From the IMG/VR virus record IMGVR_UViG_3300033070_001497, positions 1-64,000 of that record: a stretch of DNA of 64,000 nt; one strand, written 5' to 3'. Made by a program: the position numbers and the translations under genes. This document shows positions 3,759 to 21,445 of this stretch, one piece after another (positions within the stretch are counted from its first letter, which is position 1; each line of letters begins with the position of its first letter). Source of the stretch: a virus (taxonomy: Duplodnaviria; Caudoviricetes). The notes beneath the pieces are model-generated. The model was not told the DNA's origin, did no database searches, and saw only the letters and a list, made by a program, of their open reading frames with translations.

Positions 3759-3761
3759 GAC

Positions 3762-4271: not shown

Positions 4272-4272
4272 C

Positions 4273-6333: not shown

Positions 6334-6381
6334 TCCAGCGACATAAGATCAACCCAAACACTCAACCCAAAACGACCAAAC

Positions 6382-6858
6382 ATGCGTAGACTCCTCATGC
6401 CCTTTGCGATCATCGCGGCGATGCTGATCGCGTCGTGTGCTAGCCCACACCGGCACTCACGGTCAACTATTGTGCATTGTTACCACAGCGACGCCGATTT
6501 CCTGTGGTGGTACATGATCAACACCAACAACGGGTGCTACTACTACAGTTCCGCATCCCCAGTGACCAATTTCAACCAGACGATCAACTGGACCTATTCG
6601 GCCACGCCACCATCCCAGGTCGCTGGATTGCAGGAGCAACCGACGATGGAAGCTGACATGGCCACACTTGAGCCCGAAGTTGCACAAGACGTGGATGTCG
6701 AGTCAGTAGAGATGGCGTCTGAGCTCGAGCCGGAAGTGGATTTCGACGCCGATGGTGAAGCTGACGCCAGCGATGGCAGCTCGGATGGTGGTAGCTCTGA
6801 CGGTGGAGGCGGAGGTGATGGAGGCGGTGGCGGAGATGGCGGTGGCGGAGGCGACTAG
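6382..6858 (+). CDS. putative lipoprotein with acidic Gly-rich tail
   Basis: Signal peptide ending LIASC; C-terminal GGGGD repeats. Confidence 0.7.
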   Translation: MRRLLMPFAIIAAMLIASCASPHRHSRSTIVHCYHSDADFLWWYMINTNNGCYYYSSASPVTNFNQTINWTYSATPPSQVAGLQEQPTMEADMATLEPEVAQDVDVESVEMASELEPEVDFDADGEADASDGSSDGGSSDGGGGGDGGGGGDGGGGGD

Positions 6859-6894
6859 GCATTTGAACGAACAACCCAAACACAACAACACGAC

Positions 6895-7260
6895 ATGGAA
6901 AACGTAACAACAGACACCGCTCCTTCGCTGGATATGCCGGGAGCATTCGCGGAGACGCTCCGCAGGAGCAACCGTAAGATCCGTGATGACAGGGCCCAAG
7001 CCATCGTCGAGACAACGGAGCTCATCTACAAGCGGACCGTCGAGGACATCGAGACCGAGATCAAGCAGCTCAAGCGGAGGCGCGAGAACAAGCTCGACCT
7101 GAGCCCGACAACGGCCGACTCGCTGACGCTCGCCGACAATTTCGACGCGGCGGGCTTCGTGTCCGAGGACATCAAGATCGGCCTTTCGCTCCGCGAGCTG
7201 GAGATCAAGCTTCAAGTGGCCACTGAGCGCTACAACAAGCTCTTCAAAGCCAGCGTCTGA
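6895..7260 (+). CDS. coiled-coil hypothetical protein
   Basis: 121-aa ORF coupled to the vWA gene. Confidence 0.75.
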   Translation: MENVTTDTAPSLDMPGAFAETLRRSNRKIRDDRAQAIVETTELIYKRTVEDIETEIKQLKRRRENKLDLSPTTADSLTLADNFDAAGFVSEDIKIGLSLRELEIKLQVATERYNKLFKASV

Positions 7261-8174
7261 TGGGCAACGCCAGCTATTCCTTCAGTTCTCGCTCGCTAAG
7301 GGCGAGCACTGAGGGATACCATACGAAGTCGATGGATGCGACTTTCGTCCAACAGAAGGAACGGAAGATCCACCCAGAGATGCTGCCATCGAAGGCCCTG
7401 CTCCGTGAGTGCAGGGACTCCGAAACCCATCCTAAGGCGATCCCTGTGGAGCTCTGGCTCGATCTGACCGGGAGCATGCATGAGATCCCGATGCTCCTCA
7501 TCAAGGATGGCATGCCGACGATCGTGAGCAAGCTCCAACAGAACGGACTCGAGGACGGCGCTTTCCTCTTCGGAGGAGTCGGTGACCACGTCTACGACAA
7601 GGCTCCGTTGCAAGTCGGCCAATTCGAGTCCGGCGACGCTGAGCTTGACATGTGGCTGACGCGAACGTTCATCGAACGTGGCGGCGGCGGAAACAACGGC
7701 GAAAGCTACCTGCTAGCATGGTACTTCGGCGCCTACCACGTCAAGTCCGACGCCATGGAGAAGCGCAACCGTAAGGGCTATCGGTTCACCATCGGCGATG
7801 AGCCGTGTTTGGAATCGATCCCTCTGTCAGCCCTGAACGAGATCATGGGCGGTAAGGCGATCGGCCAGGGCCAGTACACCCGAGGGCAATTGCTCAAGGC
7901 CTCGATGGAGAACGCCTACACGTACCACATCCACGTGAAGCACAACGCTGGAGTGAGCTCCAAGGTCGACGGCTGGTGGGCCGAGGCGTTCGGCCAGAAC
8001 TTGATCGTCGTCGACGACTACACGACGATCCCACAGGTGATCTCTGACACGATCATCGCGAACGAACAGCGGATCTCCGATTCCGTGAGCGACGATCGGG
8101 ATTCGGCCCTAGGGACGGCGACCCGAGACGGCAAGAGCGGCGTTGATCTCAGTGACATCAAAGTCACGCTCTGA
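7260..8174 (+). CDS. vWA-domain protein
   Basis: MIDAS-like LDLTGSM, GGGGNNGESY, FTIGDEP. Confidence 0.8.
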   Translation: MGNASYSFSSRSLRASTEGYHTKSMDATFVQQKERKIHPEMLPSKALLRECRDSETHPKAIPVELWLDLTGSMHEIPMLLIKDGMPTIVSKLQQNGLEDGAFLFGGVGDHVYDKAPLQVGQFESGDAELDMWLTRTFIERGGGGNNGESYLLAWYFGAYHVKSDAMEKRNRKGYRFTIGDEPCLESIPLSALNEIMGGKAIGQGQYTRGQLLKASMENAYTYHIHVKHNAGVSSKVDGWWAEAFGQNLIVVDDYTTIPQVISDTIIANEQRISDSVSDDRDSALGTATRDGKSGVDLSDIKVTL

Positions 8175-9271
8175 TGAAAGTGGTGGTTGGGACTGGCTTC
8201 GGGGATGAGGGAAAAGGCCTCACGACCGATTTCCTCTGCTCCGAAGCCCTGTCCCAAGGCCTCAAGCCCGTGGTTTTCAGGTTCAACGGTGGCCATCAGG
8301 CTGGACACACTGTCCAGCTCGATGGCCGTCGGCACGTGTTCTCTAACTTCGGCTCCGGCACGCTTCGAAAGGTGCCGACGGTGTGGGGCCAGCATTGCAC
8401 GTTCTATCCAACTTCCTTCCTCGAGGAGCTCGAGCTGCTCAGGGATCTCGAGCCAGATTTCTACGCCCATCCAGTGTGCCCTCTCGTCACGCCATTGGAC
8501 GTGATGGCAGGGCAGAACCGCGAGAGGAAGCTCAACCACGGCTCTGTCGGCGTTGGGTTCGGAGCGACGCTCCAGAGGAACGAGGACCACTGCAACGTCT
8601 TTGTGCAGGACATCTTCTATCCGGCCATCCTCAGGATCAAGCTTGAGCTCGTCTGCAAGTACTACGAGCTCCAATGGAGCGAGGAGATGGAGATGTTCTT
8701 CAACGACTGCATGGCGTGTCGCGAACACATCAAGCTCGCACAGGAACTCAGGATCGGCAGCGATTTTGCGCCGGTGTTCGAGGGAGCGCAAGGCCTCATG
8801 CTCGATCAGAAGTTCGGATTCTTTCCTCATGTGACAAGGTCCAACTGTGGATCCAGGAATGCGTTCATCATGAGCAGGCTGGCGAATGGCCGGGACCCGA
8901 AGCTCAACGAGGTCTGGTACGTCACGCGCACCTACTCGACCAGGCACGGCAATGGCCCTCTCCCAGGCGAGGGCGAGCGCATCAAGATCACGAACAACGA
9001 GAACGAGTCCAACGTCGAGAACGAGTTCCAACGGAACTTCAGGGTCGCACCGCTGAGTGCAGATGTGCTCAACTACGCTATCCATTCCGATGCGTTGTAC
9101 GTACCAAGCAATTTCAAGCGTTGCCTCATGGTGACTTGCAACGACCAACATCCGATCGACATCGGCCAACTGCTAGACTCCTTCAGCTTCAAGTTCGAGA
9201 GGGTCTGTCTTTCGTTCGGCCCTTCGGCAGTCGATGTAAAACAGTACACAGCCCTAAAGCTTCCAGCATGA
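8174..9271 (+). CDS. purA: adenylosuccinate synthetase-like protein
   Basis: GFGDEGKG, RFNGGHQAGHTV, FEGAQGLMLD, FPHVTRS, TRHGNGP. Confidence 0.8.
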   Translation: MKVVVGTGFGDEGKGLTTDFLCSEALSQGLKPVVFRFNGGHQAGHTVQLDGRRHVFSNFGSGTLRKVPTVWGQHCTFYPTSFLEELELLRDLEPDFYAHPVCPLVTPLDVMAGQNRERKLNHGSVGVGFGATLQRNEDHCNVFVQDIFYPAILRIKLELVCKYYELQWSEEMEMFFNDCMACREHIKLAQELRIGSDFAPVFEGAQGLMLDQKFGFFPHVTRSNCGSRNAFIMSRLANGRDPKLNEVWYVTRTYSTRHGNGPLPGEGERIKITNNENESNVENEFQRNFRVAPLSADVLNYAIHSDALYVPSNFKRCLMVTCNDQHPIDIGQLLDSFSFKFERVCLSFGPSAVDVKQYTALKLPA

Positions 9272-9567
9272 AAAGGTGTGGTTCATGCGTTCACTGGAAG
9301 AACCACCAGCGAGAGACCAACTATTTCGAGGATGTTGGATTCTGCCTGTGTCCGGCCATGAATTTCAACTTCAACGATGGACGATTGGTTGGAGTCGTCG
9401 ATTTGGCAAACCCGATCGATAGGTCGAAGGTCAGCGGCGAGGCCTTCCATGATTTCGAATCACAGGTCCGCCCAACAGAGATCAAGCATGGCCGGTATCT
9501 CCTGACGACCAATGTGAAGTTCGGTTGCATCCTGCACGAGTCCCAGGAGCCAAAGGCAAAAAAGTGA
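9268..9567 (+). CDS. Cys-rich hypothetical protein
   Basis: MKRCGSCVHW...GCILH; ATGA-coupled to the purA-like gene. Confidence 0.65.
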   Translation: MKRCGSCVHWKNHQRETNYFEDVGFCLCPAMNFNFNDGRLVGVVDLANPIDRSKVSGEAFHDFESQVRPTEIKHGRYLLTTNVKFGCILHESQEPKAKK

Positions 9568-9707
9568 CTTCGCCGTTTCACGGATTCGGCCGAAGTGTTA
9601 TGTTTGTCGTCCTAAACTAGTAAATGGCATCGTTCCTTGGGTCACTAAGCAGATAGACATAAAAGGTGGACATGTCTGCTGCTATCTATCCACTAACACA
9701 AACCAGC

Positions 9708-10982
9708 ATGAAAGAGGTAAAGTTGATCTGTGTCACGGAGGAAAATAACAACAAGATCTACAACATGAAAGAGGATCCTGGTGGATCCACGTTCACGGCC
9801 CAATGGGGCCGGGTCGGAGGCACGCTAGCCAGCAAGCAATATCCCATGCGCGAATGGGACAAGATCTACAACGAGAAGACCGGAAAGATCCGGAACGGGT
9901 ACATCTACAAGGACATGACCCATCTCTTCGCAGTCGAGGCGCCCGCTGCCGATGGAAGCCCATCGGCTCCAACCGTCAGGCAGATGATCGCGAGCGGGAG
10001 GCACTCGACTGTGAAGGACATCATGACACGGCTCCTGGCATTCGCCAAGAAGTCGATCCAGATGAACTACACCGTCAGCTCCGAAGCGGTCACACAGGCA
10101 CAGGTAGACGAGGCACAGCGCCAACTCGATGAGATCGCTAAGCTCGGTTACAAGGATCAGACCGTGCAGGAGATCAACCGCAAGCTGGTTGACTTCTTCC
10201 AGGTGGTGCCTCGGAAGATGAAGAAGGTGAGCGATCACCTGATCCCATTGGACGGCGAGGATCACTCCAAGCTATTCGATGACATCATCATGGAGGAGCA
10301 GAACACCCTGGACGTTATGGCCGGCCAGGTGACCATGCAAGACAAGGACAAGAAGGCGGCCAACGAGCCCAAGGCGGTCACACAAGCAGACATCCTCGAC
10401 CAGATGGGCCTCGAGATGGAGCCTGTCACAGACCCGAAGGCGATCGCGGAGATCAAAGCCCAGATGCAATCCAAGGCCAAGATGTTCAAACAAGCCTTCC
10501 GGGTGGTCAATAAGCGCACCAGCAAGGTCTACGAGGAACACATCAACAAGGCCCCGGTCAAGAAGAGCGAGCTCTTCTGGCACGGCTCACGCTCGGAGAA
10601 CTGGACCTCCATCATGGAGAAAGGTCTCCTCATCCGGCCATCTGGCGCGGCTTACACTGGATCGATGTTCGGCGACGGCATCTACTTCGCATCGGAGTTC
10701 GACAAGTCGCTCGGTTACACATCGATCAACTCCTCGAGATGGGCAGGCGGCAACTCAAACGTGGCTTTCCTCGCCCTCTACCGTGTGCACATCGGCAAGC
10801 AGTATGTGACGCAGAACTCTGACGGTTCGCTGTGTCATTCGAAGCTCCAGAAGCTCGGTGGGTATGACTCAACCCATGGCAAGAAAGGCAGCTGGTTGGC
10901 ACGCGACGAGTACATCGTCTACACCCCACAGCAATGCACCATCGAGTACCTCGTTGAGGTGGAAGGCAGCCAATACTCATGA
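9708..10982 (+). CDS. poly(ADP-ribose) polymerase with WGR, regulatory and catalytic domains
   Basis: NNNKIY...AQWGRVG (WGR), FFQVVPRK (regulatory), FWHGSR, GSMFGDGIYFA, KSLGY, DEYIVY (H-Y-E triad). Confidence 0.88.
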   Translation: MKEVKLICVTEENNNKIYNMKEDPGGSTFTAQWGRVGGTLASKQYPMREWDKIYNEKTGKIRNGYIYKDMTHLFAVEAPAADGSPSAPTVRQMIASGRHSTVKDIMTRLLAFAKKSIQMNYTVSSEAVTQAQVDEAQRQLDEIAKLGYKDQTVQEINRKLVDFFQVVPRKMKKVSDHLIPLDGEDHSKLFDDIIMEEQNTLDVMAGQVTMQDKDKKAANEPKAVTQADILDQMGLEMEPVTDPKAIAEIKAQMQSKAKMFKQAFRVVNKRTSKVYEEHINKAPVKKSELFWHGSRSENWTSIMEKGLLIRPSGAAYTGSMFGDGIYFASEFDKSLGYTSINSSRWAGGNSNVAFLALYRVHIGKQYVTQNSDGSLCHSKLQKLGGYDSTHGKKGSWLARDEYIVYTPQQCTIEYLVEVEGSQYS

Positions 10983-11350
10983 TCATGACGCAACAGCTAG
11001 AAGAGATCGTGTTCGAGATCGTAGCCGAGCGAAAGCGAGCGGTCGAAAAGCACGGCGAGCTCCACCTCCCATCCGTCTGTGAGGTTCTGCTGAACAGACA
11101 AGGCGGATCCACTCCCGAGAGGATGTGCGAGGAGTACGAACTCCCGAGCGAGAGCCGAGCGAAGTTCAAGACCGAGCTCGCAAGGGATCGGAACGAGCTC
11201 ACATGGGCACATGTCGCCACCGAGGAGCTCAGCGAGGCAGTCTCGGCCAAAAGCGATAAGGAGAGGAGAGAGGAACTGTTGCAGCTGGCCGGAGTAATCC
11301 TGGTGTGGATCCAGGACATTGACAGAAACCAAACACCCTCAATTTCATGA
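10979..11350 (+). CDS. MazG-like all-alpha NTP pyrophosphohydrolase
   Basis: TWAHVATEELSEAV...RREELLQLAGV..WIQDID. Confidence 0.65.
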   Translation: MIMTQQLEEIVFEIVAERKRAVEKHGELHLPSVCEVLLNRQGGSTPERMCEEYELPSESRAKFKTELARDRNELTWAHVATEELSEAVSAKSDKERREELLQLAGVILVWIQDIDRNQTPSIS

Positions 11351-11916
11351 ACGCGATCACGAAGAAAGACGTGCAACGTGCGGCCGAGCTCTCGCTCTCC
11401 GCCAATGGCAGGACAACGACCCTCGAGGTCAAACTCGCACTCCGAATGCTCGGTTTCCAAGCCTTCCAATCCGAGGTGAGCGGCTTCATGGACGAGCTCT
11501 TCAACGAGGAGGTGTTCGACCGTGAGATGAACACGAGCGGCAAACACTGGGACTATATCCCGACCGTGCCTGACTCGGTGGTCGATGCTGTCATCGACGA
11601 TGGCGATGCCACCGCACAGATCGGTGCTGGCACCCAGCCAGCCATCGGTTCCGGCACACAAGCTCAGGTGGCCACCGCTCCAGCAGCAATCGGCCGGGCC
11701 ATCCACTTCCCAGACGACGTCGCCTCGATGAACAAGCAGGACATGGCCCGGCGCTTCGACGCTGACGACTGGGTGGCCTTCGACGAGGTGAGCGGCCAGC
11801 GGTTGGCCTTCCCGAAGTCTTACACGCGTGACAAGTGCCGTGCGGCCTTCCAACGCCACACCGGCATCCCATACAACAACGTGCGCTGCCAGACGATCGG
11901 CTGGTACACACGCTGA
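11347..11916 (+). CDS. hypothetical protein
   Basis: 189-aa ORF, ATGA-coupled. Confidence 0.7.
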   Translation: MNAITKKDVQRAAELSLSANGRTTTLEVKLALRMLGFQAFQSEVSGFMDELFNEEVFDREMNTSGKHWDYIPTVPDSVVDAVIDDGDATAQIGAGTQPAIGSGTQAQVATAPAAIGRAIHFPDDVASMNKQDMARRFDADDWVAFDEVSGQRLAFPKSYTRDKCRAAFQRHTGIPYNNVRCQTIGWYTR

Positions 11917-11989
11917 ACCAACCCAGTGAATCCGAGGAGGCGATCTGATGGTCGCCTCTTCGAGGGTTGCAGCGTTGCATAGGATCAAC

Positions 11990-12427
11990 ATGTTTGATCC
12001 TGAGAGCCCAATACACAGCGTAGATTGGTCAGCTGGCATCAGAGACCAGTTGGCCGATGGCACCATCTCCTCGATCACCGAATCGAACGTTTCGTTCCAC
12101 ACCGAACTCACGCTGGAGGAGCTTGGACTCCCACAGGAAAAGATGGAGTTCATGTCGATGGTGGACGACGAGGGCAAGGTGCTTTCGGCCTACTCTAGGA
12201 TGCTCCGCATCGATAGGAAAACGAACGTGAATCTAGAGTTCCAGAAACTGGACGAACTCTCGAAAGCGAATCTCAGCGAGGCTATAGCCGACAGCCTATC
12301 GGAGTACACTCATATCTGGAAGATCATCGAGGCTAGAAACCCGTACTTCATCGCTGGCTACGTCGAGAATCGGGTCCGTTACATCGTCTATGGCGTGAAG
12401 TCCGGCTGGCGTAAAAAGGCCGCATAG
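11990..12427 (+). CDS. hypothetical protein
   Basis: Start placed at the ATG after the GCATAGGA motif at 11977. Confidence 0.6.
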   Translation: MFDPESPIHSVDWSAGIRDQLADGTISSITESNVSFHTELTLEELGLPQEKMEFMSMVDDEGKVLSAYSRMLRIDRKTNVNLEFQKLDELSKANLSEAIADSLSEYTHIWKIIEARNPYFIAGYVENRVRYIVYGVKSGWRKKAA

Positions 12428-12433
12428 GAAACC

Positions 12434-14446
12434 ATGGAAAGACCGTACCTGATGGGCCTCAACGAGGCCCAACTCGAGGCTGTGCTCAACACCGAAGGGC
12501 CAAACATGGTCATAGCTGGCCCGGGCTCAGGCAAGACGCGTGTTCTCACGACGCGCATCGCACACCTCGTGGCAGAGGGCGTGGACCCGTTCAGGATCCT
12601 GGCCCTGACATTCACGAACAAGGCTGCCAAGGAGATGAAGTCGAGGATCTCGAAGCTTCTAGAAGGATCGACGAGCTCTGACTCCGTGTGGGCCGGCACG
12701 TTCCACAGCGTCTTCGCTAGGGCCCTGCGCCTGAACGCTGAGCGCATCGGCTACACCCCAGATTTCTCGATCTACGACTCAGACGACACTCGGTCGTTGA
12801 TCAAATCGGTTGTCAAGTCGATGAGGTTGGACGAGAAGCTCTACAAGCCCGCACTCATCCAGAACAGGATAAGCCAGGCCAAGAACGCGATGATAGGGCC
12901 GTTGGAGTACGCCGAGAATGAGCGCAGGACTGGGTTCGACGAAGAGAGCGGCAGGCCAAGGATCGCCGACATCTACGAGGAGTATGCGTTCCGTTGCTTC
13001 AAGTCGAACGCCATGGACTTCGATGACCTGCTCTTCAACATGGCCCTCATGCTCAGGGACCACGACGACATCCGAGAGCAGTACCAACAGAGGTTCAGCC
13101 ATGTCCTAGTCGATGAGTACCAGGACACGAACGCTGCCCAGTTCGACATCGTGCGCCAGCTAGTCGAGAAGCACAGGAACATCACCGTAGTTGGAGACGA
13201 CAGCCAGAGCATCTACTCCTTCCGAGGAGCCAAGGTCGGCAACATGCTCCGCTTCCTGGAGGATTACCCAGACCACAAGCTGCTCAAGCTCGAGCAGAAC
13301 TACCGCAGCATCGGCGCCATCGTAGACGCGGCCAACTCCGTCATCACGAACAACAAGGACCGGATCGATAAGACCATCTGGACCGAGAATTCGGCTGGTG
13401 ATAGGATCTCGATACACCTCGCGAACAGCGAACAGGACGAGGCCGACTACGTAGCGCGCTGCATAGCAGCCATCGCGAAGGGAAAGGGAGCCAAGCCGTC
13501 TGAATTCGCCGTCCTCTACCGCACGAACGCACAGAGCCGCTCGATAGAGACAGCCCTCTCAGCCAAGGCCATCCCTTACCGGGTGTACGGCGGCATCAGC
13601 TTCTACCAGCGCAAGGAGGTGAAGGACCTCATCGCGTACATGCGGCTCGCTTGCAACCCGAACGACGAGGAGGCTCTGAAACGAGTGATCAACTACCCAA
13701 CACGAGGCATCGGCAATTCGACCGTCGATCGGCTGTTGGCCATAAGCGGCACGCGGAAACTCGGGATCTGGGACGCCATGGACCAGCACCTATTCGACGC
13801 TGGCCTGGGAGATTCCACCCTGAAGAAAGTGAGCGACTTCATCGCGAAGATCAAGGGCTTCCAGGCCGTGGCCAAGGGCCCAGCTTCGGATGCAGTCGAC
13901 CACATCGCCGATTCGTCTGGCGTGATGTCCGAGCTCGGATCTGACCTCAGCCCTGAGGGCCAGGAAAGGCACGACAACGCACAGCAGCTCGTATCGGCCG
14001 CCAAGGAGTTCAATGAGCGGAGGCCAAGCGCGCCTCTCGCAGATTTCCTTGCTGAGATCGCTCTTGTGACCGGATCGGATTCCTCGGACGATGGAACGGT
14101 CAGCCTCATGACGGCCCATGCATCCAAGGGACTGGAATTCCCGTACGTCTTCATCATCGGTCTCGAGGAAGGGCTCTTCCCGAACTCGCTTGGGATGTCT
14201 ACCCGAGAGGACCTCGAGGAGGAGCGCCGGCTCTTCTACGTCGCATTGACCAGGGCCGAGCGCTACGTCTCGCTCGTCCACTCGCAGTCCAGGTTCCGTT
14301 GGGGCCAGGTCGATTACCCTGCGCCGAGCAGGTTCCTCCGTGAAGTGGGCGACGGCGTCACCCGGACACAGAGCCCTCCGAGGCCCAAGCCAGCTACCAC
14401 GCCTCCCTGGGCCCGAGCATTGAAGGACAGAGATGATTCTTTCTGA
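12434..14446 (+). CDS. uvrD: UvrD/PcrA superfamily-1 DNA helicase
   Basis: AGPGSGKT, LTFTNKAA, VDEYQDTN, VGDDSQSIYSFRGA, LEQNYRS, TAHASKGLEF, EERRLFYVALTRA. Confidence 0.93.
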   Translation: MERPYLMGLNEAQLEAVLNTEGPNMVIAGPGSGKTRVLTTRIAHLVAEGVDPFRILALTFTNKAAKEMKSRISKLLEGSTSSDSVWAGTFHSVFARALRLNAERIGYTPDFSIYDSDDTRSLIKSVVKSMRLDEKLYKPALIQNRISQAKNAMIGPLEYAENERRTGFDEESGRPRIADIYEEYAFRCFKSNAMDFDDLLFNMALMLRDHDDIREQYQQRFSHVLVDEYQDTNAAQFDIVRQLVEKHRNITVVGDDSQSIYSFRGAKVGNMLRFLEDYPDHKLLKLEQNYRSIGAIVDAANSVITNNKDRIDKTIWTENSAGDRISIHLANSEQDEADYVARCIAAIAKGKGAKPSEFAVLYRTNAQSRSIETALSAKAIPYRVYGGISFYQRKEVKDLIAYMRLACNPNDEEALKRVINYPTRGIGNSTVDRLLAISGTRKLGIWDAMDQHLFDAGLGDSTLKKVSDFIAKIKGFQAVAKGPASDAVDHIADSSGVMSELGSDLSPEGQERHDNAQQLVSAAKEFNERRPSAPLADFLAEIALVTGSDSSDDGTVSLMTAHASKGLEFPYVFIIGLEEGLFPNSLGMSTREDLEEERRLFYVALTRAERYVSLVHSQSRFRWGQVDYPAPSRFLREVGDGVTRTQSPPRPKPATTPPWARALKDRDDSF

Positions 14447-14664
14447 AGCGACCTACAAGAAATGTGAGTGCTGTGGCAGCATCGGTGAGCAGAAGTCCAC
14501 GGTTGCGATCACTGCAAGGAGGAGTTCAGGCTCGGCGAGTCTGACAACCCGCTCAGAATGTCCGTGTTCTACGAGCTCGGGCGCAAAAGTTTTCGCCTAG
14601 CGGTACCAAGTTCGAAAGAATTGTTACATTTGCACCCTCAACGACCAAGATACATAGAAACCAA

Positions 14665-14800
14665 GTGAAGAACCAGACGACATACACCTTGCCAATGGGA
14701 CCGCGCGACCTCGGTTGCCTGGATCCCGAGAAGGCCGTCTGAAGAAGCACTAACACATAGCACTTCGGACGGCTTCCCAAACAAGGAAGCCGTTCGGCTT
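14665..14800 (+). promoter_or_regulatory. leader peptide (GTG 14665 to TGA 14742) with terminator/antiterminator attenuator
   Basis: Hairpin CGGACGGCTTCC/GGAAGCCGTTCG (14766-14796). Its 5' arm can instead pair with GCCGTCTGAAG, which spans the leader stop codon. Confidence 0.6.
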
Positions 14801-14811
14801 TAGTAACGTTC

Positions 14812-14824
14812 GTTCATTGACATA
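14812..14824 (+). promoter_or_regulatory. boxA-like antitermination element
   Basis: GTTCATTGACATA just before the first tRNA; resembles rrn boxA. Confidence 0.55.
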
Positions 14825-14835
14825 CTGTCTCGCAA

Positions 14836-14907
14836 GGCCTGATAGTTTAACTGGTAGAACGCTCGCATCGTAAGCGAGTGGTGTCGATTCAACTTCGACT
14901 CTGGCCT
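14836..14907 (+). tRNA. tRNA-Thr(CGT)
   Basis: Anticodon arm CTCGC-ATCGTAA-GCGAG; one acceptor mismatch. Confidence 0.75.
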
Positions 14908-14943
14908 CACAGTAACTTGGATACATAGGTTCAAACCGGTATC

Positions 14944-15603
14944 ATGTTACGGCAATTGATCTGTTCGAAGTGTAATTCCTTGTTTGAGATTGATGTGAAG
15001 GAATCGGCATGGCGGTTCGGAGATTACCGTAGGACATGTTCATCGAAATGTGCTAGAAGCAGAATGCTTTCGTCAGAATCGAAAGAGAAGAAACGGAAGT
15101 CAATGACCAAGAATCTTGGTCCCTATTGTCGGCTCAGTTCGATGGCAAAAAAGTGCAAGTGGTGTAAAAGACCGCATCGATCAGCAGATCGAAAATACTG
15201 CAGCGATCAGTGCTTGCTGAAAGCACAGAGTAAATCTGCAACAGATATTAACCTTGGTGGAAATCGAAACCGTTATGCTAAAGGCTGGTATGATTCACCG
15301 ATCGCCGGTAAAGTCTACTTGGAAAGCTCTTGGGAACTTGAATTAGCTAAGATTCTTGATGAGCTGGTCATTCAATGGATTCGTCCAGATTCAATGAATT
15401 GGATCGATGACAATGGAGTCACACATAAGTATTTTGCTGACTTCTATCTGATGGAATCTAATCTCTACCTGGATCCTAAAGCACCAGCTTTCCAAGCCAG
15501 AGACTCAAGAAAAATAGAATTGGTATCATCACAGAACAATGTCATAGTTCTTGTTCTAGGAAAGGATCAAATCACCAAGGAGTATATTCGAACGATAGCG
15601 TGA
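14944..15603 (+). mobile_element. free-standing PD-(D/E)xK (TnsA-like) homing endonuclease with Zn-finger N-terminus
   Basis: ESSWE...YFADFYL...YLDPK and CxxC motifs; visibly AT-richer than its flanks; inserted in the tRNA array. Confidence 0.65.
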
Positions 15604-15834
15604 GGGAAAGAGGACCCACCGCTGTTGGCTCGTCCAACAGAGGAAGTTCGCGGCATCCATCTAGGAGGAAGGAGACGCAAGTCGCTCGCACTTCCGCAAC
15701 ATGGGATGCAACCGAAACAGTGGCTAGGCTGGGTGCCTAGAGGCCGGAAAACGCCGCAAGGCGAAACAGCCACGGGTACGGGCTCAGACAAATGGTGGGA
15801 TAAACCAGAACCGCGGCTACGCTCGCCCTCGCGC
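15598..15834 (+). ncRNA. rnpB: minimal RNase P RNA
   Basis: P1 GCGTGAGGG/CCCTCGCGC, P2 CCCACCG/TGGTGGG, P3 CTGTTGG/CCAACAG, GAGGAA-G(T)TCGCGG pairing with AGAA-CCGCGGCT (P4 with bulged U), AGACAAATG, and L15 GGTA. Confidence 0.8.
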
Positions 15835-15847
15835 ATATTACAATACC

Positions 15848-16388
15848 AAGGGGTCACACTGCACGACCAACTACGGATAAACATGGACGTCGAAAGACGC
15901 GAATGGAGTGGGATTCGAAGCCCACAAAACCGACCCCTGACAAGGTGCCCAACTGCAACACAAACCAGCTCTTCCAAAGCAGAGGTCCGGTGTTCGAATC
16001 CCGGTGGGTCCGCTACTAAACAAACGGACTCATAGTGTAATGGCTAGCACGCTTAAAGCGGCACCTGCCCACAAGGTACTCAACCGCATTCAACTTGTCC
16101 CGCCACAACTGGGACAAAACAGATGGGTACCTGACAAGGCGTCACACAGCAATCCAAACGCAACATTGAGATGCAAACCCATGACGCCTGATAAGGTGAC
16201 AATCAGCAAGACACGCAACGAAAACGAGGAGTTCTAGGTCCGAATCCTGGCTGGCCCACTAAAAACGTCAATGGGCCGGTGGAGTAACGGTAACTCGCCC
16301 CGATGCAAAAGTCACCTGACAGGGCATCTAACAGCAGTTCTATCTTGACCGCGGCTTCGGCCGTTGATGAGACCAAAACAGATGCCCG
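15848..16388 (+). repeat. array of six stem-closed RNA units (AGG-stem...CAGCA/CTGCA...AAA-stem-CCTG)
   Basis: Units at 15848-15939, 15942-16067, 16073-16133, 16136-16190, 16193-16318 and 16321-16388, with covarying closing stems. Confidence 0.75.
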
Positions 16389-16393
16389 TATTC

Positions 16394-16466
16394 GCTTCCA
16401 TAGTTCAGTAGGTGAGAACAGGTCCTTGGTAAGGATCAGACAAGAGTTCGATTCTCTTTGGGAGCT
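16394..16466 (+). tRNA. tRNA-Thr(GGT)
   Basis: GGTCC-TTGGTAA-GGATC; canonical arms. Confidence 0.88.
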
Positions 16467-16469
16467 CAA

Positions 16470-16682
16470 ATGAAACTAGTCAACGAATTACCGAATCTGT
16501 TCGAACGAGCACAGTTCTTTGTTCGGGCTCTTCGAGATGACACTCGATTGTCGAACGAGGAGATCGAGATGGAAGCTGTCTCTGAAATCTGTGACGAGCT
16601 GCTAGATTCGATCGATCTGACAGATCGTAAAGAGCTCAAGAGAGCTCTACGGAACATGTACTTCCTAGGCCAACTCAAATGA
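16470..16682 (+). CDS. hypothetical protein
   Basis: 70-aa ORF between the tRNA and the SLOG gene. Confidence 0.6.
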   Translation: MKLVNELPNLFERAQFFVRALRDDTRLSNEEIEMEAVSEICDELLDSIDLTDRKELKRALRNMYFLGQLK

Positions 16683-17035
16683 AGCTCATAGTCGCTGGTG
16701 GTCGGGATTTCAACGATTGGGATCTGCTGAACAGAACACTGACGAAGATCCTCGAGAGGACCCAGATCAAAGAGGTGATCAGTGGAAAGGCCAAGGGAGC
16801 TGACACGCTGGGTGAGAGATTCGCTTCGGAGAATGGGATCCCAGTGAAGGAATTTCCAGCGGACTGGATCAAATACGGCAAACGGGCTGGGTACCTCAGG
16901 AACAAACAGATGGCCAATCACGGAGAAGCGTTGGTGGCCTTCTGGGATGGCAAGAGCCCAGGAACAAAGATGATGATCGACCTCGCCAAGGAGCTTGGTC
17001 TCAAGGTGCTGGTGGTAAAATACATGGCTGGGTAG
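16679..17035 (+). CDS. SLOG-superfamily (DUF2493/YspA-like) protein
   Basis: IVAGGRDF, ISGKAKGADTLG, AGYLRNKQM, AFWDGKSPGT. Confidence 0.8.
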   Translation: MKLIVAGGRDFNDWDLLNRTLTKILERTQIKEVISGKAKGADTLGERFASENGIPVKEFPADWIKYGKRAGYLRNKQMANHGEALVAFWDGKSPGTKMMIDLAKELGLKVLVVKYMAG

Positions 17036-17112
17036 CTCAAGCTTAATGAGAGCGACTTGCGGAAGGTACCCTCTACTGCAAGGAGATGTCCGAGAGTGGC
17101 GGACCCTGGCCC
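17026..17112 (+). ncRNA. tRNA-like RNA with extended anticodon arm and aberrant T-loop
   Basis: Acceptor GGCTGGG/CCTGGCC, D-stem GCTC/GAGC, CTTGCGG/CTGCAAG arm, GTCCG-AGAGTGG-CGGAC. Confidence 0.5.
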
Positions 17113-17119
17113 ACCGAAT

Positions 17120-17191
17120 TCCAGGTTAGTTTAGTCGGTAGAACTCCGCCCTTGTAACGCGGAAGCGACAGTTCGATTCTGTCACTTGGAT
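17120..17191 (+). tRNA. tRNA-Thr(TGT)
   Basis: Loop CTTGTAA; acceptor TCCAGGT/ACTTGGA; C-C mismatch at the base of the anticodon stem. Confidence 0.7.
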
Positions 17192-17201
17192 CAAGAAGAA
17201 T

Positions 17202-17272
17202 GCTTCGGTAGTATAGTGGTAGTACGCTAGATTGCCAGTCTAGGGGTGAGGGTTCGATTCCCTTCCGGAGCT
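17202..17272 (+). tRNA. tRNA-Gly(GCC)
   Basis: CTAGA-TTGCCAG-TCTAG. Confidence 0.88.
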
Positions 17273-17277
17273 CAAAT

Positions 17278-17351
17278 GGTGACGTGTCCGAGTGGTCTAA
17301 GGACTGTGTCTGCAAAACACATGCTCAGCGGTTCGAATCCGCTCGTCACCT
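17278..17351 (+). tRNA. tRNA-Cys(GCA)
   Basis: TGTGT-CTGCAAA-ACACA. Confidence 0.88.
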
Positions 17352-17356
17352 CAACA

Positions 17357-17526
17357 TCGTCGGTAAGGAAACTGGGTACAACCCGCGGATAGGTGACCGT
17401 CGCTGGGAACGTAACAACGGAAATCGTGCGAAATCATTTGGGCAAAGTCGACTCACCCCATTTGGTAGTACCACGGCTCACCGAAAGCAAGCGCCAGCTA
17501 GGATCGTTCGATTCGATCACCGACGA
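17357..17526 (+). ncRNA. 170-nt RNA closed by a tRNA acceptor/T-arm minihelix
   Basis: TCGTCGGT/ACCGACGA plus GATCG-TTCGATT-CGATC. Confidence 0.5.
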
Positions 17527-17643
17527 CGATTAGGAGAGCGATGCCCTAACAAGGTTCGGGATGTGGATTGGCTTTGGGGTTAACGACAGGGACCTCCACA
17601 TTCGATCAGATCCGATGAGATACGACATCGGAACGTCGCAAAC

Positions 17644-17717
17644 GCTCTGGTGGCGAAACTGGAAAACGCTCTCCCCTTAAAGCGGAGCTACTGTCGGTTC
17701 GAATCCGGCTCAGAGTA
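17644..17717 (+). tRNA. tRNA-Leu(TAA)-like, short variable arm
   Basis: Leu-type D-loop GGCGAAACTGGAAAACGC; loop centred on TAA; no long variable arm. Confidence 0.65.
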
Positions 17718-17722
17718 CAAAT

Positions 17723-17807
17723 GCCCAGCTGGTGAAATGGAAGCCACGTGCGCCTTAGGAGCGCATGCCTCGGAAGAGGCGTCTCGGTTCGAGTCCGAGG
17801 TTGGGTA
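17723..17807 (+). tRNA. tRNA-Leu(TAG)
   Basis: TGCGC-CTTAGGA-GCGCA; long variable arm. Confidence 0.88.
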
Positions 17808-17832
17808 CCGCTGTTAGGGATACATAGCCTCA

Positions 17833-18486
17833 ATGGCTTACAAAGATCCCAAGAAGAGGTTCTGCTTCGTCTACAAGACAACGAACCTCATCAACCAGAA
17901 GTACTACATCGGATGTCATTGTACGTACAAACTCGATGATGGGTACTTAGGAAGTGGAATGAGAATTCGAAGATCGATCAAAAAGTACGGCAAGCAAAAT
18001 TTCAAGCTTGAAGTTCTTGAATTCTTCGAAAGCCGAGAAGAAGCATTGGCTCGAGAGAAAGAATTGATCACTGAAGAGATCTTAAAAGATCCCTTGAACA
18101 TGAACATCCATCCTGGCGGATTAGGCGGTGGCGGATTTGCACTAATGTCAATTGAAAAACGGCGTGAGGCTAATAAACGTGGAGCTCAGACTCAACTAAA
18201 GAAACGTTGGTCTAATCCAGCATCACATCAAGCTCAAAGCCAGTTAATGACCAAGCTCTTGACATCGGGTAAAATTAAAAGGATCGATTGGACTGGCAAG
18301 AAACATTCAAACCAAACGAAAGACAAAATACGAAGCTCTGTTCTTGGAAAGCAAAGTGGATCCATGAACTCACAGTTTGGAAGTTGTTGGATAACCAAAG
18401 ACAAACAGTCGATGAAGATCCGGAAAGACGATATCCAGTCCTATTTAGATCTTGGTTGGCAATTGGGTCGTAAGATGAAACAGTAA
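17833..18486 (+). mobile_element. GIY-YIG (Seg-like) homing endonuclease with NUMOD3 tail
   Basis: FVYKTTNLINQKYYIG..H...DGYLGSG; GKKHS...; AT-richer; located in the tRNA array. Confidence 0.85.
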
Positions 18487-18488
18487 GC

Positions 18489-18572
18489 GGGGCTATGGAG
18501 GAACTGGTAGACTCAAACGGCTGAGAACCGTTGCACTTAATGTGCGTCCGGGTTCGAGTCCCGGTAGCCCTA
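18489..18572 (+). tRNA. tRNA-Leu(GAG)
   Basis: AACGG-CTGAGAA-CCGTT; long variable arm. Confidence 0.88.
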
Positions 18573-18595
18573 CAAAGAATCTGGTAGTGGAAGAC

Positions 18596-18664
18596 TTGGC
18601 AGTAGCTTAACCAAGAGCGCCGGCCTACGAAGCCAGAGGTACGGAGTTGATTCCGTCTGTCAGA
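18596..18664 (+). tRNA. degenerate tRNA-Arg(ACG)
   Basis: CCGGC-CTACGAA-GCCAG; D-loop lacks GG; T-loop non-canonical. Confidence 0.5.
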
Positions 18665-18717
18665 GTTGAAGCGATCAGATTAACTCGATCCGAGGTTCGA
18701 AACTCGATCGAGACCTT

Positions 18718-18789
18718 GGCCGGTTGGTGTAATGGATAGCATCCGACGCTTCGAACGTCGGGATACGGGTTCGAGTCCTGTACTGGTCA
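18718..18789 (+). tRNA. tRNA-Arg(TCG)
   Basis: CGACG-CTTCGAA-CGTCG. Confidence 0.88.
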
Positions 18790-18795
18790 CAACAT

Positions 18796-18869
18796 CGAGG
18801 AGTAGCTTAATGGAGAGCTCTCGCCCTGGAAGCGAGAAGGCGTCCGTTCGACCCGGATCTCCTCGACCA
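18796..18869 (+). tRNA. tRNA-Pro(TGG), C33
   Basis: CTCGC-CCTGGAA-GCGAG; encoded CCA. Confidence 0.82.
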
Positions 18870-18873
18870 ATTT

Positions 18874-18947
18874 CGGAGAGTAGCTTAATTGGCGAAAGTC
18901 CTTGACCGGGAGTCAAGTGGATGTGCGTTCGACTCGCATCTCTCCGA
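18874..18947 (+). tRNA. tRNA-Pro(GGG), C33
   Basis: CTTGA-CCGGGAG-TCAAG. Confidence 0.8.
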
Positions 18948-18952
18948 CGAAT

Positions 18953-19024
18953 GCCGACGTGGTCCAATGGCCAAGACACGTCCCTCATAAGGATGAGACA
19001 ACAGTTCGATTCTGTTCGTCGGTA
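18953..19024 (+). tRNA. tRNA with CAT anticodon (elongator Met or Ile2)
   Basis: CGTCC-CTCATAA-GGATG; lacks the initiator GGG/CCC stem. Confidence 0.82.
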
Positions 19025-19032
19025 CGAACTTT

Positions 19033-19108
19033 GGTCCCGGAAGCTGCTGTTCGTGGCTGCCCGACTGTCTATCGGGTGAGGTGGGTTAGATTCCCATCGG
19101 GACCGCCA
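19033..19108 (+). tRNA. tRNA-Asp(GTC), atypical D-arm
   Basis: CCCGA-CTGTCTA-TCGGG; GCCA end. Confidence 0.65.
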
Positions 19109-19122
19109 AAGGTGAAGTCAAG

Positions 19123-19237
19123 TCACAGGTTTTGCGACGCTGAGAAGCGATAGCGGAAATAGTTCAACCCGGCCAGAACGCCGGCCAGAATGCCGGAAAC
19201 CGCGGTTCAAATCCCGATCTGCGAGTGGAACCTGTGA
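19123..19237 (+). ncRNA. tRNA-like module nested in an outer stem
   Basis: TCACAGGTT/AACCTGTGA encloses a D-arm, a CCGGC-CAGAAT-GCCGG arm (6-nt loop) and a TTCAAAT T-loop. Confidence 0.45.
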
Positions 19238-19282
19238 TGAGATGGAGCGCCGGTCTGTGGTCGCGAACTCAGGTCGGAATAC

Positions 19283-19354
19283 GGCTCATTGGTATAGTGG
19301 TTAACATATCGCACTGTCACTGCGAAGTCTCGGGTTCGATTCCCGAATGAGCCG
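19283..19354 (+). tRNA. tRNA-Asp(GTC)
   Basis: TCGCA-CTGTCAC-TGCGA. Confidence 0.88.
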
Positions 19355-19399
19355 CCGTCCTAGTACCCATGATACAGTTGAACAGCAAAGAACACGATC

Positions 19400-19650
19400 C
19401 ATAGCAGCTGGAAATGCTAGCGGCAGAGGCGAGCCGATCCAGCAAAAAATGAAAGCCCATCAAGATCGAGGATCTACCAGATTCAAACGCTTGCATGCTC
19501 AAGGCAAGATCAAGTACAACACATTCGCTGGCCGAAAGCACAATCCAGAAGCCATTGAACGAATGAAATTGGCTCATGCCGGCCAACAAACAGAATCCAG
19601 AAATTCCCAGTTTGGATCCTGTTGGGTACAGAAGGATGGCACTTCAAAAT
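19400..19650 (+). pseudogene. remnant of a GIY-YIG/NUMOD3 homing endonuclease C-terminus
   Basis: GKIKYNTFAGRKH...NSQFGSCWVQKDG parallels GKIKRIDWTGKKH...NSQFGSCWITKD of 17833-18486; no nuclease domain. Boundaries approximate. Confidence 0.65.
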
Positions 19651-19651
19651 T

Positions 19652-19722
19652 GCCTTGCAGGTGTTTTGGCTGCATGTCTGCCTTCCAAGCAGAGGGAACC
19701 GGTTCGATTCCGGTGCAGGGCT
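19652..19722 (+). tRNA. tRNA-Gly(TCC)
   Basis: TCTGC-CTTCCAA-GCAGA. Confidence 0.82.
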
Positions 19723-19736
19723 TTCATGACGAAATT

Positions 19737-19821
19737 GCCCAGGTGGCGGAATGGCAGACGCGTGCGTTTCAGGAACGCATGTCCTAGCGGCGTGAGGGTT
19801 TGAGTCTCTCCTTGGGCACCA
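19737..19821 (+). tRNA. tRNA-Leu(CAG)
   Basis: TGCGT-TTCAGGA-ACGCA; encoded CCA. Confidence 0.88.
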
Positions 19822-19844
19822 GGTGGCGGTGAATAGATACCGCC

Positions 19845-20186
19845 ATGAAAGACATCCTCTCGTTCAACGACTTCAAGGCTGAGCGCCTGAACGAATCGGT
19901 GACCCTCAGCAAGAGGAGCGCACCGCGCGACATTACCAAGGACAGCAAATCCATCGCCGGACGGGTCAAGAACCTGATCGGCGAGATGGGCCAGATGTCC
20001 TATGAGGACCTCAAGAATGCGTTCAGGAACATCGTCACCGACGAGGAAGGGACGAATGCCTCGCCTGAGACCCGCGCAAAGTGGATCCAAGCCCTGGCAA
20101 AGTCCACCGGCAAGGTGAGCCTGATGCAGACCATCACGAACATCTACCTCGGTGGCGCCGGCTGGAAGCTGGACCGAGGAGCCTAA
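19845..20186 (+). CDS. hypothetical protein, putative internal head protein
   Basis: AATAGATA box upstream; N-terminus MKDILSFNDFKAERLNES. Confidence 0.7.
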   Translation: MKDILSFNDFKAERLNESVTLSKRSAPRDITKDSKSIAGRVKNLIGEMGQMSYEDLKNAFRNIVTDEEGTNASPETRAKWIQALAKSTGKVSLMQTITNIYLGGAGWKLDRGA

Positions 20187-20187
20187 A

Positions 20188-20272
20188 GCCCGGGTGGCGA
20201 AAAGGTAGACGCGTCGGTTTCAAAAACCGATGCCACGAAAGTGGCGTGTGGGTTCGAGTCCCACTTCGGGCA
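20188..20272 (+). tRNA. tRNA-Leu(CAA)
   Basis: TCGGT-TTCAAAA-ACCGA; long variable arm. Confidence 0.88.
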
Positions 20273-20336
20273 CAATGTGATCTGGCAAGCCACGGCCAAC
20301 CTCGTTGAATTCTGGCATAGGATCTGAGAGCCGTTT

Positions 20337-20726
20337 ATGGCAGCATCAGACATGAAGACCGAAGTCAAGAGGAGCAAACTTGGTGGCCGAGGAGTGTTCG
20401 CCACGAAGGACATCAGGAAAGGCGAGGTGATCGAGAGGGCCGAGATCATCAGGTTCAAGCGCGGCGATAACAAGCACCTCGAACAGACGGCCATCCTCGA
20501 CTACTACTTCGACGATGGCAAGCGCGGCACCTACCTGGCATTGGGCAACGGTTCCCTGTACAACCACGCCGATGATCCGAACTGCTTCGTTCTGATGAAC
20601 ACGGATTCCAAGGATCGGTTGGTCTACATGGCCAGGAAGCCGATCAAGAAGGGCGAGGAGATCACATTCCACTACTACGGCTTGCCTGGCACCAAGTCAG
20701 AGATGTGGTTCAAGAAGAAGGAGTAG
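20337..20726 (+). CDS. SET-domain lysine methyltransferase
   Basis: GRGVFATKDIRKGE...SLYNHADDPN...ARKPIKKGEEITFHY. Confidence 0.88.
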   Translation: MAASDMKTEVKRSKLGGRGVFATKDIRKGEVIERAEIIRFKRGDNKHLEQTAILDYYFDDGKRGTYLALGNGSLYNHADDPNCFVLMNTDSKDRLVYMARKPIKKGEEITFHYYGLPGTKSEMWFKKKE

Positions 20727-20798
20727 CGAGGTGTAGCTTAATGGCAGAGCGCACGCTTCGGGAGCGTGTAGGCGTCCGTTCGACCCGGATCACCTCGA
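20727..20798 (+). tRNA. tRNA-Pro(CGG)
   Basis: CACGC-TTCGGGA-GCGTG. Confidence 0.85.
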
Positions 20799-20806
20799 CT
20801 GATTAT

Positions 20807-20878
20807 GGTTCCATAGTTCAATGGATAGAATAGTGGCCCGCGAAGCCTCTGATTCGGGTTCGAATCCCGATGGAACTT
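20807..20878 (+). tRNA. tRNA-Arg(GCG), C33
   Basis: GTGGC-CCGCGAA-GCCTC; A20-type D-loop GGATA. Confidence 0.72.
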
Positions 20879-20980
20879 CAAATGCGAGACAGTATGTCCC
20901 TGAAAATAGATAGGAGACATGAGATAACCAGGGCATAGAGTCGTAGGATCTGCGCCAGAAACGAAGCAACAGGAAGCGCC

Positions 20981-21445
20981 ATGAAAAACAGGAAGTTCAA
21001 ATCCCTTGGCACGTACAAGGAAGTGGACCTGATCCCTTACCTCAAGGAGAAACTCGCCGAGAGGGACGACATCAAGCTCTACATCGGCACCGACAGCCAG
21101 AACGTGAAGCGCAAGACGGTCTACGCCGTCGTGATCGTGCTGCACTACGGCAACAACGGTGGCCACGTCATCTACTCGAGGATCGAGGTCCCACGGATCC
21201 GCGACATGTTCACTAAGCTCTGGAGGGAAGTCGAGGACTCGATCGCCCTCGCAAAGTACCTCGTCGAGAACGGGATCATGGAGCCGACCTACATCGACAT
21301 CGACTTCAACCCTGACCCGAAGTACGATTCCAACACGATCCTGAGGGCAGCCCTCGGTTACGTCGAGGCATCTGGCTTCAAGCCTAGGTCGAAGCCTGAC
21401 GCTATGGCCGCTTCACACGTCGCTGACCACATCGTGAACTCGTAG
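20981..21445 (+). CDS. RNase H-like YkuK (DUF458) protein
   Basis: LYIGTDSQ...KLWREVEDS...IDID...KPDAMAASHVAD. Confidence 0.8.
   Translation: MKNRKFKSLGTYKEVDLIPYLKEKLAERDDIKLYIGTDSQNVKRKTVYAVVIVLHYGNNGGHVIYSRIEVPRIRDMFTKLWREVEDSIALAKYLVENGIMEPTYIDIDFNPDPKYDSNTILRAALGYVEASGFKPRSKPDAMAASHVADHIVNS

Follow-up and report, generated by a model that had tools for sequence, protein, structure and literature searches.

Sequence and covariation support for a phage-borne RNase P RNA homologue with a vestigial specificity domain

Of the two universal ribozymes, one is ribonuclease P (RNase P), which trims the 5' ends of new tRNAs and whose specificity domain reads the tRNA elbow; it has so far been treated as a cellular or organellar gene. 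In the bacterial enzyme the protein subunit, RnpA, contacts only the catalytic domain (C-domain) of the RNA. Extreme shrinkage around P1, P4 and the conserved regions CR-I and CR-V is seen in the reduced organellar RNase P RNAs of the yeast mitochondrial RPM1 type, organelle genes whose products depend on dedicated proteins and from which much of the C-domain, too, has gone. In the archaeal type T RNA of Thermoproteaceae (RF02357), a natural RNA of ~200 nt, the catalytic domain is conventional and most of the specificity domain (S-domain) is missing; P2 is 3 bp long, P15 is shortened and joined to P5 by a 2-nt linker, stems of the P7-P9 type remain, and the archaea concerned have archaeal protein subunits (PMC3579882). 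An engineered type A RNA, Eco CP RPR, is a laboratory truncation that consists of a C-domain without an S-domain (PMC5839562). Here we describe an element at 15598-15834 on the plus strand of a sequence from an uncultured huge tailed phage (Caudoviricetes; IMG/VR record IMGVR_UViG_3300033070_001497). We analysed positions 1 to 64,000, hereafter the window, which are the first 64 kb of a 109-kb record estimated by CheckV to be ~38% complete. Sequence comparison supports reading this element as an RNase P RNA homologue borne by a phage, in which the catalytic domain is complete and the specificity domain vestigial. It shares with type T its small natural size, a conventional catalytic domain and an S-domain that is largely missing, although it is found in a tailed phage; unlike the RPM1-type RNAs, it retains the complete bacterial C-domain; and it differs from the engineered RNA in carrying a conserved replacement module and, in the window copy, also GNRA-capped hairpins.

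RNase P RNA at these coordinates had been proposed in a first-pass annotation made from the letters alone, and the coordinates are upheld, with every helix named there found in the letters. When 1 kb around the locus (15400-16400) was searched with cmscan at permissive settings, the archaeal RNase P model RF00373 matched end to end (15604-15828; 31.8 bits, E 3.5e-7) and was the top match of the RNase P clan, with one other match overlapping it. Independently of the Rfam models, an nhmmer profile of 43 relatives, from which the row of the window had been removed, gave a sole match in the 64 kb, at 15613-15819 on the plus strand (E 3e-21), and a second profile of 16 other relatives found the same locus at E 2e-12. 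Support from covariance models and covariation of P4 across related phages had both been named as checks on the annotation: the former is present, weak for the window and strong for the relatives, and P4 does covary.

Relatives were gathered by pattern scans of IMG/VR and JGI metagenome contigs; because a loose pattern for the 3' half returned mostly chance matches, CR-I was then required upstream. This yielded 83 distinct members besides the window, all in viral or metagenome contigs, and one further candidate, L062, was rejected as coding. A first set comprised 39 unique cores, with lengths of 153-360 nt counted from CR-I as far as the P4 3' strand, and a second comprised 49 unique cores of the minimal class that lacks P18, with the window included in both; its nearest relative in the second set is 70% identical. 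The P4 positions that the search patterns had left free are paired in 115 of 117 cells, with at most four pair types per position. For P2, the exact complement of the 6-mer that comes after AAAU is present upstream of CR-I in 32 of 38 members, against 0.7% when partners were swapped between members, and the strands take 21 distinct sequences. This swap was restricted to exact complements, since allowing G-U pairs and free placement gave too high a background. P5 and P3 failed the same strict test, owing to register and G-U pairs, and their support comes from an anchored search and from the alignment count. In the anchored search, P1, P2 and P3 occur in the same arrangement, unrelated in sequence, in most members, the P3 hairpin ends at the same position in 33 of 38 relatives, and a P1 of 6-14 bp, with unrelated sequences, lies in the same place in most relatives.

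Compensatory conservation of the fold was counted on a MAFFT alignment of 44 distinct sequences, at most 70% identical to the window and fitted to no structure. The structure counted comprised P2, P3, P5, a P7-like stem, P15, P16 and P17, together with the pseudoknots P4 and P6. Across this alignment, 90.4% of the cells are paired compared with 66.2% in shuffled alignments, none of 500 of which reached the observed value, and 34 of the 42 pairs changed on both sides. The covariation measure, 0.612, fell to 0.194 in shuffles, and sliding the 3' partners by 1-3 columns left it no higher than 0.108. P4 is paired in 99.4% of cells, with four pairs changed on both sides; P2 (helices 1-2) reaches 80-92%, also with changes on both sides, and P3 87%; P5 is paired in 90%, with all four pairs covarying; and P6 in 88.6%, with five of five pairs changed on both sides. 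The stem of the S-domain remnant (helices 7-8) covaries, as do P15, P16 and P17 (helices 9-11), which are 86-96% paired. The same core letters are kept in more than 80 diverged members, namely the bulged U, GAGGAAG, AGAnAAAUG, a J2/4 of the ACAGAA type and GG(G)U in L15. Many members of the alignment carry the J2/4 variants ACAAAA, ACGGAA or ACAGGA (e.g., L179, L180, L187, L199 and L202; also L245), and CCAGAA is found in the window and in L201.

In the window, the RNA is 237 nt long, as the first-pass annotation had it (about 237 nt), and P1 closes the molecule (15598-15606/15826-15834, 9 bp; read directly and kept in both the minimum-free-energy and the centroid folds). Its 5' end overlaps the stop codon of the open reading frame at 14944-15603. 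P2 (15615-15621/15793-15799, 7 bp) was likewise read directly and covaries in the relatives, and it is followed by the P3 hairpin (15622-28/15634-40, 7 bp with a 5-nt loop), whose 3' end falls on the G of GAGGAA. CR-I with the P4 5' strand, GAGGAAGUUCGCGG, occupies 15640-15653 and pairs with the P4 3' strand CCGCGGCU at 15811-18. All eight P4 positions are paired, in blocks of 3 and 5 bp (15645-47 and 15649-53) around the bulged U15648; we take this register to be that of E. coli A66-G74/C353-U360, with U15648 as E. coli U69. P5 (CAUCC/GGAUG) lies at 15654-58/15704-08 and covaries in the relatives. The element at 15709..15781 begins with J5/15 (CAA) and P15 (CCG/CGG, 15712-14/15779-81) and continues with the L15 internal loop (AAACA/GGGUA, 15715-19/15774-78), whose GGGU is nearly invariant in the relatives, with P16 (GUGGCU/AGCCAC, 15720-25/15768-73) and with P17 (15727-30/15742-45, 4 bp), both of which covary. 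An extra hairpin with a GCAA loop (15752-63) is predicted only; it is specific to the window and has no counterpart in the relatives. On the 3' side, the region 15782..15825 falls in invariant or nearly invariant alignment columns; it holds J15/2 (GCUC, from 15782), CR-IV (AGACAAAUG, 15786-94), the P2 3' strand, J2/4 (AUAAACCAGAA, CR-V, with CCAGAA at 15805-10), the P4 3' strand, an A and J4/1, and it fits the Rfam consensus AGnnGAAUG ... ACAGAA ... GGcUUA. The GGU loop and the conserved regions AGACAAAUG and CAGAA, all listed in the annotation, are present, and its statement that P18 is lacking agrees with the letters, as nothing other than J15/2 stands between the P15 3' strand and CR-IV. 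The single-sequence fold only modestly beats shuffles (z -2.1), which is expected of a pseudoknotted ribozyme.

These features place the RNA, on sequence comparison, as a descendant of bacterial type A and not of archaeal type T. With type A (E. coli M1 RNA, the product of rnpB; RF00010) it shares P1-P5, the P2/P4 pseudoknot, a P4 of 3 + 5 bp around the bulged U, a 7-bp P2, the CAA of J5/15, CR-I, CR-IV and CR-V, and its family also has the P6 pseudoknot. Its L15 letters are AAACA/GGGUA, where those of E. coli are AAAUA/GGGUA. We base the assignment on the 7-bp P2, the 3-nt J5/15, the E. coli-like L15 and the family-wide P6. It differs from type A in its length (237 nt versus ~377 nt), in the replacement of P8-P14 by a 29-nt module, in the absence of P18, and in that the window copy is virus-encoded, lies inside a tRNA array and scores below the Rfam threshold. 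Two P4 pairs of the window are changed compensatorily relative to type A (A-U to G-C and G-C to U-G), giving GAGGAAGUUC / GGCUA. Against an archaeal type T identity stand the 7-bp P2, the 3-nt CAA linker and the bacterial L15 with its GGU; that the archaeal model scores best is probably due only to its having no P18 and no P13/P14. Since P2, linker and L15 all differ, the loss of the S-domain in the window would be independent of that in type T and convergent with it.

The S-domain itself had been described in the annotation as about 40 nt sitting where a normal domain would be. The small size stands, with 45 nt between the P5 strands, whereas plain absence does not, as a conserved miniature module has taken the place of the domain. 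Of those 45 nt, 29 form a stem-loop module, the S-domain remnant at 15667..15695, leaving no room for P13/P14. The specificity domain proper, P8-P12 with CR-II and CR-III, is not present in the window RNA, and the S-domain positions are deleted in its Rfam alignment. The remnant consists of a P7-like stem (GGAAG/CUUCC, 5 bp, 15667-71/15691-95) followed by GAG, a 3-bp hairpin with a GCAA loop (15674-83) and a 7-nt strand, GCUCGCA (15684-90). This module is common to all short members, in the design stem, GAG or AAG, hairpin, CGUUAnnA, stem, with some letters nearly invariant. The closest relative, L202, has the same remnant stem and the same GCUCGCA strand, with compensatory differences in the inner hairpin. 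Because the remnant comes directly after the P6 5' strand, it is P7-like in position, and its asymmetric internal loop (GAG opposite 7-8 nt) may be a relic of CR-II/CR-III. P6 of the window is predicted by analogy with L202, which has GCGAGA/UCUCGC at the two P6 places: the candidate pairs CUAGG (15661-65) with CCUAG (15736-40) over 5 bp, the latter lying in the loop of the 4-bp P17.

Across the family the P5 strands enclose an insert of variable size, from 40-47 nt (45 nt in the window; also L003, L107, L001, L070, L153 and L081) up to ~155 nt. Scores under the bacterial type A model RF00010, which has a gathering score of 100, are graded as well: L097, in a 168-kb viral contig, reaches 191 bits and so clears the Rfam threshold, followed by L070 with 63.1 bits and a cultured phage, DLP6, with 54.7 bits, while L153 obtains 46.8 bits under RF00373. 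Almost all members lie below Rfam thresholds and are missed by standard annotation. A search of 185,579 species genomes with the short-form pattern returned 14 matches and no true member; none of the 14 had GGCUA, a P4 partner or adjoining tRNAs, and they were assigned to a repeated coding element in one metagenome-assembled genome (MAG) of Flavobacteriales and to four coding regions. In that MAG (CBDCZM01; L160-L173), a stretch of ~275 nt that matches the pattern by chance occurs in at least 10 near-identical copies across Mb-sized contigs; it looks coding and is probably a mobile element.

Published phage genomes were searched by blastn with a consensus-like member and then with the family profile. 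Two huge phage genomes carry a member, LR756501.1 (735 kb, E 8e-33) and LR756511.1 (595 kb, E 6e-21), and a divergent, AT-rich version was found, at a profile E value of only 3e-7, in LR756500.1, the closest published relative of the phage studied here. In this last element (~81,670-81,860 on the minus strand; ~1370-1560 of locus L243), CR-I reads GAGAAAAUUGG and P4 would be AAUUGG/CCAAUU. A further member is found in the cultured Stenotrophomonas phage vB_SmaS-DLP_6 (DLP6; KU682439.2, ~105,774-106,022, plus strand), with a profile E value of 7e-24 and an RF00010 E value of 1e-14, in an unannotated gap before tRNA-Arg. P1-P7, with a 7-bp P6, and P18-like hairpins can be discerned by eye in this copy. 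The description of DLP6 lists 30 tRNAs, with RNase P RNA not among them (PMC5349666), and RNase P is not mentioned in the huge-phage paper (PMC7162821). By the strict pattern or RF00010, no match was obtained in LR756500, LR756504, LR756501, Lak-B5 or Lak-A1, and blastn of the window RNA, of its 1.5-kb surroundings and of L035 against GenBank phages found none. The members thus appear, from their sequences, to form a large phage-only RNase P RNA family for which we found no published description; the full-text literature searched, in which subscription journals are mostly outside coverage, yielded no report of a phage- or virus-encoded RNase P RNA.

That the window is of phage origin is supported by its PHROG matches to a tail fibre and a baseplate wedge protein and by relatives with terminal-repeat-complete genomes of 306-488 kb. 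It also encodes an NAD-dependent ligase, a fusion of polynucleotide kinase and dCMP deaminase, a UvrD helicase, a PARP-domain protein, a SLOG protein and a GIY-YIG endonuclease. For the baseplate protein, the closest counterparts are in published huge phages (LR756500-504 and the Prevotella Lak phages) and in phages of Bacteroidota, which suggests, at the level of sequence, a Bacteroidota host. The RNA lies among 21 tRNA genes on its own strand (2499-20879), which are canonical, with 44-65 bits; at the Rfam gathering thresholds the window yields 20 tRNAs and nothing else. The neighbourhood is the same elsewhere: around the 83 other members, all 624 tRNA genes share the strand of the RNA, with none on the opposite one, and the nearest is at a median of 333 nt. 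No sigma-70-like promoter or terminator scored above shuffles at the RNA gene, and the upstream 219-amino-acid open reading frame, with two tblastn matches in the 83 loci, is not a conserved partner.

On this evidence, we consider it probable that the element is an active ribozyme, derived from type A, which matures the phage's own tRNAs with host RnpA. P1-P5, the metal-binding P4 with its bulged U, CR-I, CR-IV, CR-V and P15/P16 with the GGU are kept, and probably also P6; P18 and nearly the whole S-domain are lost, with a conserved stem-loop module of 30-45 nt in their place. As no promoter or terminator of its own is evident, the RNA would probably be expressed by being cut out of a long transcript of the tRNA array. 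It would then join host RnpA and trim the 5' leaders of phage pre-tRNAs during infection, adding to or replacing the host's RNase P capacity, and it would read its substrates mainly through the acceptor stem, the leader and the 3' end and less through the tRNA elbow. The universal tRNA neighbourhood points to pre-tRNA as the main substrate. The first-pass idea of a phage-supplied RNase P ribozyme accordingly stands as to RNase P RNA identity, through covariance-model support and P4 covariation, with tRNA processing as the part that we infer. The RNA may likewise tolerate the tRNA-like RNAs nearby, as the annotation proposed.

Its further suggestion that the phage may borrow host RnpA fits the distribution of the protein. 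No RnpA homologue (PF00825) was detected in the phage's own fragment, in any of six carrier genomes that are complete (DLP6, LR756501, LR756511 and viral contigs of 306, 488 and 365 kb) or in two partial carrier contigs (248 and 251 kb), and because no phage rnpA was found, the host protein is the likely partner. As reported for Eco CP RPR, cleavage of substrates persists in a type A catalytic domain deprived of its S-domain, although its efficiency is reduced (PMC5839562). With RnpA binding the C-domain and a C-domain-only RNA able to cleave, host RnpA together with the phage RNA would be an economical model.

Several observations weigh against an active tRNA-maturing ribozyme. At Rfam gathering thresholds there is no RNase P match in the window: the best score is 31.8 bits against a gathering score of 84 for RF00373, and that of RF00010 (100 bits) is not reached by the window RNA either. 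The J2/4 of the window is CCAGAA, with the first letter changed from the ACAGAA of most members, and its P6 competes with a local 6-bp hairpin. CCA is encoded in only ~4 of the 21 tRNA genes, though the GGU loop that pairs with CCA is kept. Some related huge phages lack the RNA or have it in a degenerate form, and the member in LR756501 was missed by the pattern and by RF00010. Removal of the S-domain is reported to lower the activity of engineered RNAs (PMC5839562), and the phage's own genome, ~38% complete, leaves room for a phage rnpA or a novel partner protein.

The 560-nt gap that follows the RNA bears on a different choice of substrate. It contains five stem-closed modules (15850-15946, 15944-16065, 16075-16131, 16137-16187 and 16195-16316), four of which are followed by CUGAYARGG (15937, 16131, 16188 and 16316). 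Two of them, 15944-16065 and 16195-16316, read as a tRNA back to front, in which the anticodon arm and T-arm come first and the acceptor 3' strand, a 13-14-nt loop, the acceptor 5' strand and the D-arm follow, with a 6-bp stem closing around the anticodon arm, T-arm and acceptor 3' strand. Their acceptor 5' strands start at 16026 and 16273. On the rotated halves, ARAGORN called a tRNA-Gly(UCC) and a tRNA with anticodon CGA, and made no call in five shuffles. These modules were initially taken for true circularly permuted tRNA genes, a reading that was toned down to YrlA-like tRNA mimics in the light of PMC4201824; by analogy, their architecture resembles that of YrlA-type Y RNAs. RF02553 does not match the modules, and no Ro60/TROVE gene was found in the phage's own fragment. 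Further downstream, a half resembling an acceptor 5' strand and D-arm starts at 17391, 39 nt downstream of tRNA-Cys (17278-17352) and complementary to its 3' end; it could have arisen by partial duplication or be a further rearranged tRNA.

An active RNase P-derived ribozyme could also have been retargeted, with other phage RNAs that have acceptor-like stems as its main substrates: the two YrlA-like mimics downstream, or transfer-messenger RNA (tmRNA) or GOLLD-type RNAs in the relatives, the loss of elbow reading then serving the new target. The two permuted modules do have 7-bp acceptor stems and lie only 110-480 nt downstream, tmRNA and GOLLD genes occur near members in the relatives, and a YrlA RNA whose acceptor stem has 7 bp is cut by RNase P RNA in vitro and undergoes both cleavage and CCA tailing in vivo (PMC4201824). 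Yet such back-to-front modules are essentially absent from 400 kb of the relatives' loci, where tRNA arrays are the universal neighbour, and the 21 canonical tRNAs of the window need 5' processing anyway, so that we regard retargeting as improbable. The tRNA maturation proposed above could, more tentatively, be an orthogonal, phage-run process for times when host RNase P is limiting or disabled, in which the RNA, no longer bound to read the tRNA elbow, would act alone or with a partner, either host RnpA or a phage protein so far unrecognised, also opening the sealed acceptor stems of the YrlA-like mimics before G16026 and G16273; as a whole we think this extension unlikely.

Two further explanations dispense with catalysis. 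As a decoy or regulator, the RNA would bind host RnpA or pre-tRNA without cutting and so divert or throttle host tRNA maturation to the benefit of the phage. The lack of a detected phage RnpA is compatible with this, and an RNA reduced to the C-domain could titrate RnpA, given that the protein contacts that domain alone. A decoy, however, needs no bulged U, J2/4, CR-IV letters or GGU loop, which are conserved in more than 80 diverged members, and the large tRNA arrays of these phages need RNase P activity; we give this explanation little credence. A decaying, functionless remnant of a captured host rnpB would account for the lost S-domain and P18, for a score below Rfam thresholds and for the degenerate AT-rich version in LR756500, but compensatory changes maintain nine helices across 44 sequences, the miniature S-module is itself conserved and members are spread widely over viral and metagenome contigs. 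Decay is strongly disfavoured by these data, and we consider it very improbable. That the bulged U, J2/4, the CR-IV letters and the GGU loop are conserved speaks in favour of catalysis and against both decoy and remnant, and we therefore favour a catalytic RNA acting on phage pre-tRNAs.

Other features of the array deserve mention. A tRNA with anticodon CUA, an amber suppressor labelled Pyl by ARAGORN, lies at 2499-2570, and recoding of TAG in some phage genes is possible. Many tRNA genes of the window are followed by C and AAAU in place of CCA. Genes in and around the array (9666-10982, 16679-17035, 17833-18486, 20981-21445 and 40819-41844) encode a PARP-domain protein, a YspA/SLOG (YAcAr) protein, a SegE-like GIY-YIG endonuclease, an RNaseH-like protein (PF04308) and the fusion of polynucleotide kinase and dCMP deaminase, a mix which, judged by sequence, looks like RNA repair or conflict functions. 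In the relatives, GOLLD RNAs occur at L145:7888-8305 and L153:10629-11095, tmRNA near members L064, L046, L097 and L153, and a group I intron at L153:12532-12733. Arrays in which tRNAs stand with a miniature RNase P RNA, GOLLD, tmRNA and an intron form a recurrent phage 'RNA island'.

The members of this family have remained hidden in public genomes, below Rfam thresholds, and the one in the cultured phage DLP6 makes the idea directly testable. The family offers a natural series of S-domain reductions, with inserts from ~155 down to 40 nt between the P5 strands, which bears on what the specificity domain is needed for and on the minimal size of a bacterial-type RNase P RNA in vivo. Based on our findings, we suggest that, with a virus-encoded RNase P RNA family, RNA-catalysed tRNA maturation would join the translation functions known to be taken over by big phages.

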